A DNA stretch of 64,000 nt from sequence record OP870144.1. One strand, 5' to 3'. Shown here one piece after another: positions 45,884-46,877 of the stretch; within the stretch, counting starts at the first letter, position 1, and the number at the start of each line of letters is the position of its first letter. The notes under the pieces were generated by a model. The model saw nothing but the letters and a program-made list of their open reading frames with translations. It was not told the DNA's origin and searched no databases. The position numbers and the translations under genes were made by a program. The stretch comes from Escherichia phage vB_Eco_F25.

Positions 45884-45927
45884 TTAGTACCTTATATAAA
45901 TTATAATACATTTTATGAAGCTAATAA

Positions 45928-46275
45928 TCAATACGGTTTAGCATCAAATTTTCTTTCAATTTCAGGCGTGAAATATAATTCTTTACCGCGTTTGGAAAAG
46001 CGACCAATAATATGATAATTATTCTCATCAAACGTAATATTGCCAATATCCATAGCTTTCAACCAAATATCGATATTTCTGTCAAGCTTTATATCAAAAT
46101 TCCAATACGGAGAACTATTACCGAAAATACTGCAAGCGGATTCAGTGAAACAACTGCTATAAATCTTGTCTTTAGGAACTACTAATTGATAGACGCCTTT
46201 AATAAACTGAGGACCCTGCCATTTAGGTTGTTTCGCGTCTTTTTCTAATAGAATAGGGTAATAATTAAAGCTCAT
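45928..46275 (-). CDS. hypothetical protein encoded in an insertion between frd and td
   Basis: 115 aa from ATG 46273-46275 (track ORF starts at GTG 46287, 119 aa); no motif recognised; T4 has frd/td overlapping here as far as I recall. Confidence 0.55.
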   Translation of the reverse strand: MSFNYYPILLEKDAKQPKWQGPQFIKGVYQLVVPKDKIYSSCFTESACSIFGNSSPYWNFDIKLDRNIDIWLKAMDIGNITFDENNYHIIGRFSKRGKELYFTPEIERKFDAKPY

Positions 46276-46295
46276 ATTTTCCGCCACGCGTTATT

Positions 46296-46877
46296 TCATT
46301 TATACACTGATTCCGTAAGGGTTGTTACTTCATCTATTTTATACCAATGACTTTCAACCATTTCACGTTTGCTTATATCATCAAGAAAACTTGCATCTAA
46401 TTGAACCGTTGAATTAACACGATGCCTTTTAACGATGCGAGAAACAACTACTTCATCTGCATAAGGTAATGCAGCATATAACAGAGCAGGTCCGCCAATT
46501 ACACTAACGTTAGAATTCTGGTCAAGAATAGTCTCGAATGGCGCATTAGGGCTTGACACTTGAATTGAACCGCCAGAAATGTAAGTTATGTACTGCTCCC
46601 ATGTAATATAGAAATGTGCTAAATCGCCGTCTTTAGTTACAGGATAATCACGCGCAAGGTCACACACCACAATATGGCTACGACCGGGAAGTAATGTAGA
46701 TAATGACTGGAACGTTTTAGCACCCATAATCATAATTGTACCTCCGGTACGAGCTTTAAAATTCTGGAGGTCCTTTTTAACTCGTCCCCATGGTAAACCA
46801 TCACCTAAACCAAATGCTAATTCATTAAAGCCTTCGACCGTTTTAGTTGGAGAATAAGCGAATACCAATTTAATCAT
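46296..46877 (-). CDS. frd: dihydrofolate reductase
   Basis: 193-aa ORF, T4 DHFR length and sequence (MIKLVF...GLPWGR). Confidence 0.93.

Follow-up and report, generated by a model that had tools for sequence, protein, structure and literature searches.

The region between frd (dihydrofolate reductase) and td (thymidylate synthase) was analysed in a stretch of 64,000 nucleotides (nt) from Escherichia phage vB_Eco_F25 (sequence record OP870144.1), which is referred to as the window and to which the coordinates apply. An open reading frame (ORF) of 115 amino acids (aa), designated X1, is located at the frd-td junction, and frd, X1 and td are all encoded by the minus strand. The frd gene (46296-46877) specifies a protein of 193 aa with 96% identity to the Frd protein of phage T4, and its reading frame in the ORF list ends with GTG TAT AAA TGA (...VYK-stop). 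The TGA stop codon at 46298-46296 is overlapped by an ATG at 46299-46297 in the form ATGA, and this ATG opens an orphan ORF of three codons, ATG-AAA-TAA (46299-46291), which lies within the left copy of a junction repeat, GTATAAATGAAATAA (46291-46305). The intergenic stretch between frd and X1, AATAACGCGTGGCGGAAAAT, comprises 20 nt (46276-46295) and contains a weak Shine-Dalgarno-like GGCGGA element. X1 starts with ATG and occupies positions 45928-46275 as the sole long ORF between frd and td; a GTG at 46287, upstream of this ATG, would be an alternative start codon yielding a protein of 119 aa. Downstream of X1 follows a spacer of 44 nt (45884-45927), which probably represents a regulatory element, and then the working td start codon, an ATG at 45883-45881 exactly 416 nt downstream of the orphan ATG, which is contained in the right copy of the junction repeat, GTACTAAATGAAACAA (45875-45890).

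In the genome record of T4, the frd gene (145109-145690) and the td start (145112) overlap by 4 nt in the form ATGA and no ORF is present between them, and the junction sequence of phage RB69 is exactly that of T4. A three-way alignment of the window, T4 and T2 revealed a clean block of 416 nt that is present in T2 but not in T4. The first-pass annotation of the window had described a frd stop codon overlapping a vestigial ATG (M-K-stop), a td start 416 bp downstream in a near-identical context and a single ORF between the two genes, and all three descriptions agree with the letters of the sequence; the overlap of frd and td in T4, which it had also stated, is present in the T4 record.

The junction repeat is the sole direct-repeat family in the 501-bp region. 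It consists of 12 nt, of which 11 are identical, at a spacing of 416, and can be extended to about 15-16 nt with one indel. The 12-mer TAAATGAAAYAA occurs in three copies in the window, compared with an expected number of 0.18, and two of these copies flank X1. The shorter sequence TAAATGAAA is frequent as a start context in the window, with nine occurrences against 3.7 expected, and much of each repeat copy is dictated by the coding sequences of frd and td. The coding-free positions, namely GTA(C)TAA before the td ATG and AATAA after the frd stop, still match above chance, with a joint probability of 1e-3 or less according to a rough estimate from base frequencies. The insert is bordered on both sides by a direct duplication of the target, as in a target-site duplication; terminal inverted repeats were not found at its ends, and its only ORF contains no transposase or integrase domain. 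In the loci that carry X1, referred to as state B, the left repeat copy has the same letters in all nine cases examined, and eight of nine positions agree with the td start ATGAAACAA. The frd-X1 intergenic stretch shows two variable positions and a length difference of 1 nt among the nine loci and is thus under looser constraint than the X1-td spacer. The orphan ATG-AAA-TAA is constant in all nine loci although the 20 nt following the mini-ORF vary, and its retention might reflect a stop-and-restart relay that passes ribosomes to X1, rather than just a dead scar.

At a protein identity of at least 90%, X1 was detected in 362 phage records, including T2, T6, RB32 and RB33, and the orthologues of T2, T6, RB33 and about 350 Tequatrovirus genomes share 93-100% protein identity as well as the position, the junctions and the spacer. 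A total of 344 records contain the X1-td spacer (at least 95% match over 55 nt), and only about 25-35 contain the T4-type junction, recognized as one uninterrupted match. A further state, state C, is characterized by Y, a basic ORF of 68 aa that is unrelated to X1, overlaps frd at its stop codon and td at its start codon and was found in about 135 records, for instance in Yersinia phage fPS-2 and phage ECp13. The frd-td slot has three alleles (none, X1 and Y), of which the window carries the majority allele and T4 a minority one. The first-pass annotation had described X1 as a cassette inserted into the junction; X1 is not peculiar to this genome, being present in T2, T6, RB32, RB33 and about two thirds of the Tequatrovirus-like records. 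The same annotation had proposed that presence in the reference T-even phages would mark the ORF as ancestral; here the references are split, since T2 and T6 carry the ORF and T4 does not.

X1 is already known and does not represent a new system: hundreds of genome annotations list it as a hypothetical protein, which is the only source name in its protein cluster, and it is labelled RB32ORF229c in the T6 annotation and belongs to the family PHROG 1928. In MZ501065 (FelixPlatter), OR271596 (ValerieMcCarty04) and Bas37, X1 or a homologue is annotated as 'putative homing endonuclease' without having a nuclease domain, and this label is likely an annotation error that may propagate. Y-type ORFs of 68-69 aa with an isoelectric point (pI) of about 10 were located as alternative occupants of the slot at L005:3098-3304, L007:2096-2302, L027:3670-3879 and L009:3226-3354. 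Relatives of Y with 41-43% identity are also encoded by unrelated coliphages of ~150 kb (two records named Phapecoctavirus), and Y therefore appears to move more widely than X1.

The comparison of eight Tequatrovirus copies of X1 yielded a nonsynonymous divergence (dN) of 0.004, a synonymous divergence (dS) of 0.18 and a dN/dS ratio of 0.024, compared with a ratio of 0.13 and a dS of 0.23 for frd and a ratio of 0.064 for td exon 1. Very strong purifying selection along with synonymous change of about the same extent as in frd indicates that X1 is neither filler nor a recent arrival. The first-pass annotation had allowed that the ORF might be non-coding, and the only point in favour of an accidental open frame is that the ORF is unannotated in the old partial T2 record AY310907. 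The low dN/dS ratio with ample synonymous change, the existence of homologues with shared motifs at 30-65% identity and a confident structure prediction show a real gene, and we attach practically no probability to this explanation.

The X1 protein has a mass of 13.6 kDa and a pI of 8.5, carries the conserved motifs QxKW near the N-terminus and GRFxKxG....F near the C-terminus, and matches PHROG 1928 with E = 8.4e-36 over residues 4-111. An AlphaFold2 model based on an alignment of 21 sequences predicts a beta-barrel with a single helix (predicted local distance difference test, 80; predicted template modelling score, 0.76). The top structural matches of the model are nearly all oligonucleotide/oligosaccharide-binding (OB) folds, with weak resemblance, and the predicted topology, a small beta-barrel with one helix between strands, recalls that of OB-fold single-stranded DNA-binding proteins (SSB, PriB, RPA subunits). 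A structure search of BFVD matched only uncharacterised proteins of T4-like phages. No family matched X1 in Pfam at E ≤ 10 or in NCBIfam at E ≤ 1, and nothing usable was obtained from a PDB sequence search or from PADLOC, the models of which describe defence systems and not anti-defence proteins. The searches by domain, family, structure and cluster name yielded no named homologue, and accordingly no characterised anti-defence homologue of X1. A paralogue of X1 was not found elsewhere in the window, and the literature on the frd-td region of T2 and T6, searched along with the name of the ORF, yielded nothing specific.

Homologues of X1 also occupy the slot in other phages. The members of the family, which is small and confined to phages, are 24-65% identical overall, share the motifs QxKW and GRFxKxG, and were located between frd and td on the same strand in every context examined, comprising the window, Tequatrovirus loci, Kanagawavirus, Jiaodavirus, Marfavirus, Moonvirus, Edwardsiella phage PEi20 and four metagenomic phages. 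In the phages with homologues of 30-45% identity, the slot contains two tandem paralogues (X1 and X2) in Kanagawavirus, one copy in Jiaodavirus, X1 and X2 in Moonvirus and X1, X2 and a Y-like ORF in Marfavirus F48, and PEi20 and two of the metagenomic phages contain X1-X2, X1-X2 and X2 only, respectively. The uncultured phages L027 and L028 encode X1 proteins with 62-65% identity to that of the window. The gene order in L027 is frd-X1-X2-Y-td, with each start codon overlapping the stop codon or the 3' end of the previous gene and a Y protein that is 79% identical to the Y of state C; the arrangement of Marfavirus F48 is looser. Start codons overlap the preceding stop codon or 3' end in most of these other phages. 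X1 and X2 of other genera are mostly tandem paralogue pairs, whereas X1 of the window is a single, uncoupled gene with an orphan start upstream and a conserved spacer of 44 nt downstream. An exhaustive profile search of 1.8 billion cluster representatives detected only 52 proteins at E ≤ 0.001, nearly all of which are stand-alone proteins of 95-148 aa. Formally significant multi-segment matches to large bacterial surface proteins with Ig-, PKD- or PEGA-type repeats (P0026, P0049, P0056, P0057 and P0064) were rejected, as they probably reflect summed weak beta-strand similarity; four or five such matches are probably spurious, and a distant Ig-like relationship is the less likely explanation.

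The history of the slot was deduced from a comparison of Frd and X1 trees, which were calculated by neighbour-joining with few taxa. In the Frd tree, Jiaodavirus, Moonvirus, L027, L028, Kanagawavirus and Marfavirus form one clade with 100% bootstrap support, in which the native, overlapped arrangement of X genes is found. A second clade, the T4 core (86%), includes Tequatrovirus, RB69 and seven other loci; outside Tequatrovirus it contains only the empty state or Y, so that X1 is confined to Tequatrovirus among the genera sampled in this clade. In the X1 tree, however, Tequatrovirus X1 is the sister of L027 and L028 with 99.5% bootstrap support to the exclusion of Kanagawavirus, and it is nested within the X1 diversity of the other Frd clade. 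Pairwise identities reflect the same conflict, since the Frd proteins of the window and L027/L028 are only 48% identical, whereas L027/L028 and Kanagawavirus share 62% in Frd and 48-51% in X1. Within Tequatrovirus, slot content and frd allele occur in shuffled combinations: one frd allele is common to T4 (empty), fPS-2 (Y) and the window (X1), and another to ECp13 (Y) and L015 (X1). The search for a donor frd tail kept in the frd-X1 stretch, or for X2 or Y remnants in the X1-td spacer, gave no significant result (p 0.17-1.0).

The tree conflict, the restriction of X1 to a single genus of the T4 core, its uncoupled layout and the orphan td-like start together favour an old lateral insertion with the repeat as its scar, and the similar dS values of X1 and frd indicate that the event is old. 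We consider it an evenly balanced proposition that X1, a genuine conserved accessory gene, was laterally acquired into a T4-like frd/td junction by an ancestor of Tequatrovirus, with duplication of the junction. The donor was probably a relative of the uncultured phages L027 and L028. The insertion would have duplicated about 12-16 nt, the left copy surviving as the orphan ATG-AAA-TAA and the right copy as the working td start, and would also have set the 44-nt spacer upstream of td. The three slot alleles (none in T4; X1 in the window, T2 and T6; and Y) would since then circulate by recombination in the flanking genes. The insertion footprint proposed in the first-pass annotation thus holds in so far as the duplication is real, T4 lacks the ORF and the trees favour lateral gain, but the event is old and genus-wide.

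Several points weigh against this reconstruction. The direction of transfer was deduced from gene arrangement and distribution, as the trees show incongruence only, and these are neighbour-joining trees of few taxa, in one case of a protein of 115 aa. No significant intergenic homology to the putative donor is present, and a deletion of 2 nt in the Y start ATGAGCAATAAA could likewise yield the orphan ATGAAATAA. The conserved position of the family could simply mirror the general synteny of T4-like genomes rather than point to a partner of X1. In the transposon data considered below, the gene is equated with X1 by position, size (348 bp), spacing and annotation. An alternative history assumes that X1 is ancestral and vertically inherited in the slot, and that T4, RB69 and the other phages without X1 deleted it between the short repeats. 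In T4, the loss of DNA between short direct repeats is a well-documented process, and recombination within TAAATGAAA would restore exactly the T4 junction. The same slot is filled in six or more genera with Frd proteins only 46-51% identical to that of the window, the compound X1-X2-Y arrangement suggests differential loss, and T4 Frd groups with the Frd proteins of X1-bearing and Y-bearing Tequatroviruses, so that the T4 state may be a secondary precise excision. Vertical descent is at odds, however, with the well-supported conflict of the X1 and Frd trees, with the presence of X1 in Tequatrovirus alone within the T4-core Frd clade and with the difference between the uncoupled X1 and the native overlapped layout, and it leaves the origin of the repeat unexplained. 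We regard it as a possible but rather unlikely history. The empty state of T4 is either a retained allele or the product of a precise excision through the repeat.

The spacer between X1 and td is conserved to an unusual degree. No substitution was detected in the six of nine state-B loci from which the full 44 nt were extracted, the final 40 nt do not vary among the eight loci compared, and the only difference among state-B loci concerns one T in a run of T residues. Since 37-52% of the four-fold degenerate sites in the flanking genes are polymorphic, such invariance has a chance of the order of 1e-10 by our own arithmetic, assuming a per-site polymorphism of about 0.4. The MotA box has the consensus (a/t)(a/t)(a/t)TGCTTtA and is located 12 +/- 1 bp upstream of a -10 element TAtaaT (PMC2988021). 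A MotA-box-like sequence, ATTAGCTTCA (45925-45916, minus strand), which differs from the consensus at one position and retains the central CTT, is separated by 12 nt from a downstream TAATTT (45903-45898) or by 10 nt from a downstream TATAAT (45905-45900). A promoter scan also predicted a sigma-70-like TTGATT-17-TATTAT element (45931-45903, minus strand), and a Shine-Dalgarno sequence AAGG is present at 45893-45890 on the same strand. RNA structure beyond chance was not detected in the spacer (z = 0.26). Judged from its invariance and these motifs, the spacer would most likely supply td with a ribosome-binding site of its own and a promoter of the middle type, and the insertion would have replaced the translational coupling of td to frd by independent expression signals.

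The td gene (44007-45883) is split by a group I intron in the window, T4 and T6. Exon 1 (45332-45883, minus strand; the listed ORF extends a few codons into the intron) is followed by the intron ORF encoding I-TevI, of 245 aa (44466-45203, minus strand), and by exon 2 within 44007-44321. In T2, td is uninterrupted, yet X1 is present. X1 alone is thus found in T2, the intron alone in T4 and both in the window, which makes the intron state independent of the slot state. Directly upstream of frd, an ORF of 81 aa is located at 46877-47122 on the minus strand, the TAA stop codon of which overlaps the frd ATG. It matches RB32ORF231c of T6 by size and position, whereas T4 has only a gap of 71 bp at this site. 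Since both X1 and the 81-aa ORF are missing from T4, frd of the window has genes absent from T4 on both flanks. A metagenomic T4-like phage contains a GIY-YIG endonuclease gene between td and nrdA on the opposite strand (L030:3711-4442), which represents a further optional insertion in the same gene cluster.

Experimental data are available for Tequatrovirus Bas37, for which a HIDEN-SEQ transposon study has been published as a preprint (bioRxiv 10.1101/2025.11.20.689424). According to this study, the gene bas37_0070 has a length of 348 bp and is located 19 nt downstream of frd and 45 nt upstream of td exon 1; by this geometry of position, size and spacing, and by annotation, it is the putative orthologue of X1. 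In these data, 34 of 36 TA sites of bas37_0070 were disrupted, and the gene is non-essential on Escherichia coli K-12 BW25113, as are frd and td. The log2 fold changes upon disruption were 0.40 on CFT073 and 0.18 on CFE299, as assigned by the labelled order of the data sheets, and -0.09 in a third comparison that corresponds to CFE303 by table position, with an adjusted p of 1 in each case. This neutral result covers three of the five clinical isolates, or three of the six Bas37 comparisons, a set that also includes CFE331, CFE336 and Mokosh. In the paper, bas37_0070 does not appear among the conditionally essential genes named by the authors. Insertions in this gene are among the best tolerated in the region, with a mean of 372 reads per site; the corresponding values are about 30 for td and about 0 for nrdA and nrdB (Extended Data Table 7). 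This high tolerance indicates that disruption of the putative X1 orthologue is not polar on td or nrdAB, as would be expected if td had a promoter of its own in the spacer; the design of the transposon offers another possible explanation.

With respect to function, a small basic beta-barrel with weak OB-fold resemblance would be expected to bind a partner rather than to catalyse a reaction, and the most likely partner would be found within the phage Frd/Td module of deoxynucleotide synthesis, with which X1 would be co-transcribed and, in the native arrangement, co-translated. The strict position, the translational coupling, the very low dN/dS ratio and the dispensability in step with frd and td argue for X1 as a small binding protein that works with this module, a role that we propose tentatively. 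A more specific version, in which X1 and X2 constitute a small OB-like family that physically couples Frd and Td, tethers both to the replication machinery or guards the dTMP (thymidine monophosphate) supply against nucleotide-targeting defence, is speculative and improbable as it stands; if a coupling role were true, X1/X2 would be the detachable counterpart of the junction segment in the protozoan bifunctional dihydrofolate reductase-thymidylate synthase. The main functional rival, which we rate about equally likely as a role in the Frd/Td module and thus also as doubtful, is that X1 is an anti-defence or host-takeover factor of a variable accessory region without functional link to frd or td. 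It would account for the presence/absence polymorphism with the alternative occupant Y between conserved core genes and for the properties of X1, a small gene that lacks known domains, can be dispensed with on K-12 and is probably expressed prior to replication. Phage accessory regions (bioRxiv 10.1101/2023.04.06.535777) are similar in that three contents (none, X1 and Y) are shuffled against the flanking alleles between frd and td, and they differ in that X1 is unusually conserved and the slot content is stable in other genera. Extreme purifying selection and an identity of 97-100% across hundreds of genomes are unlike typical arms-race genes, and the position is strictly conserved, with translational coupling to frd and td in other genera. 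The first-pass annotation had raised such a role as a possibility, for which positive evidence was not obtained; the gene at the same position in Bas37 is non-essential, neutral in the three clinical-isolate comparisons covered and not among the named conditionally essential genes.

Signs of autonomous mobility, as would be expected of the mobile gene that had also been suggested, were not found. A free-standing homing endonuclease or another autonomous mobile element is suggested by the homing-endonuclease annotation in BASEL phages and one Klebsiella phage and by the placement of X1 between conserved genes, about 550 bp from the I-TevI intron, which resembles that of seg and mob genes. Like the seg and mob homing endonuclease genes of T4, X1 is an optional gene between conserved genes that is polymorphic among close relatives, but X1 is only one third to one half as large, lacks a nuclease domain and shows no sign of self-mobility. 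GIY-YIG, HNH and LAGLIDADG domains are absent from X1 at the Pfam and NCBIfam thresholds given above, a protein of 115 aa is too small to accommodate a nuclease and a DNA-binding domain, and the predicted fold is a beta-barrel. Moreover, neither transposase domain nor terminal inverted repeats are present, and the intron state of td is not tied to the slot state. At the sequence level the homing-endonuclease interpretation is effectively refuted, and the probability that remains for any autonomous element is very small.

At present, X1 is best described as a hypothetical gene that was already known, that has a neat evolutionary history and that a close relative can do without under laboratory conditions. 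Since T4 serves as the reference of the group, genes that are absent from T4 tend to be overlooked; X1 is carried by T2, T6 and the majority of natural relatives, and its conservation within the genus exceeds that of the flanking enzymes. The locus provides a small and clear example of how T4-like genomes change, in that seamless gain or loss is possible for genes whose start codon overlaps the preceding stop codon, and here the addition left a readable scar and supplied td with its own putative expression signals. Should X1 indeed act together with Frd and Td, the classic deoxynucleotide-synthesis complex of T4 would gain a component.

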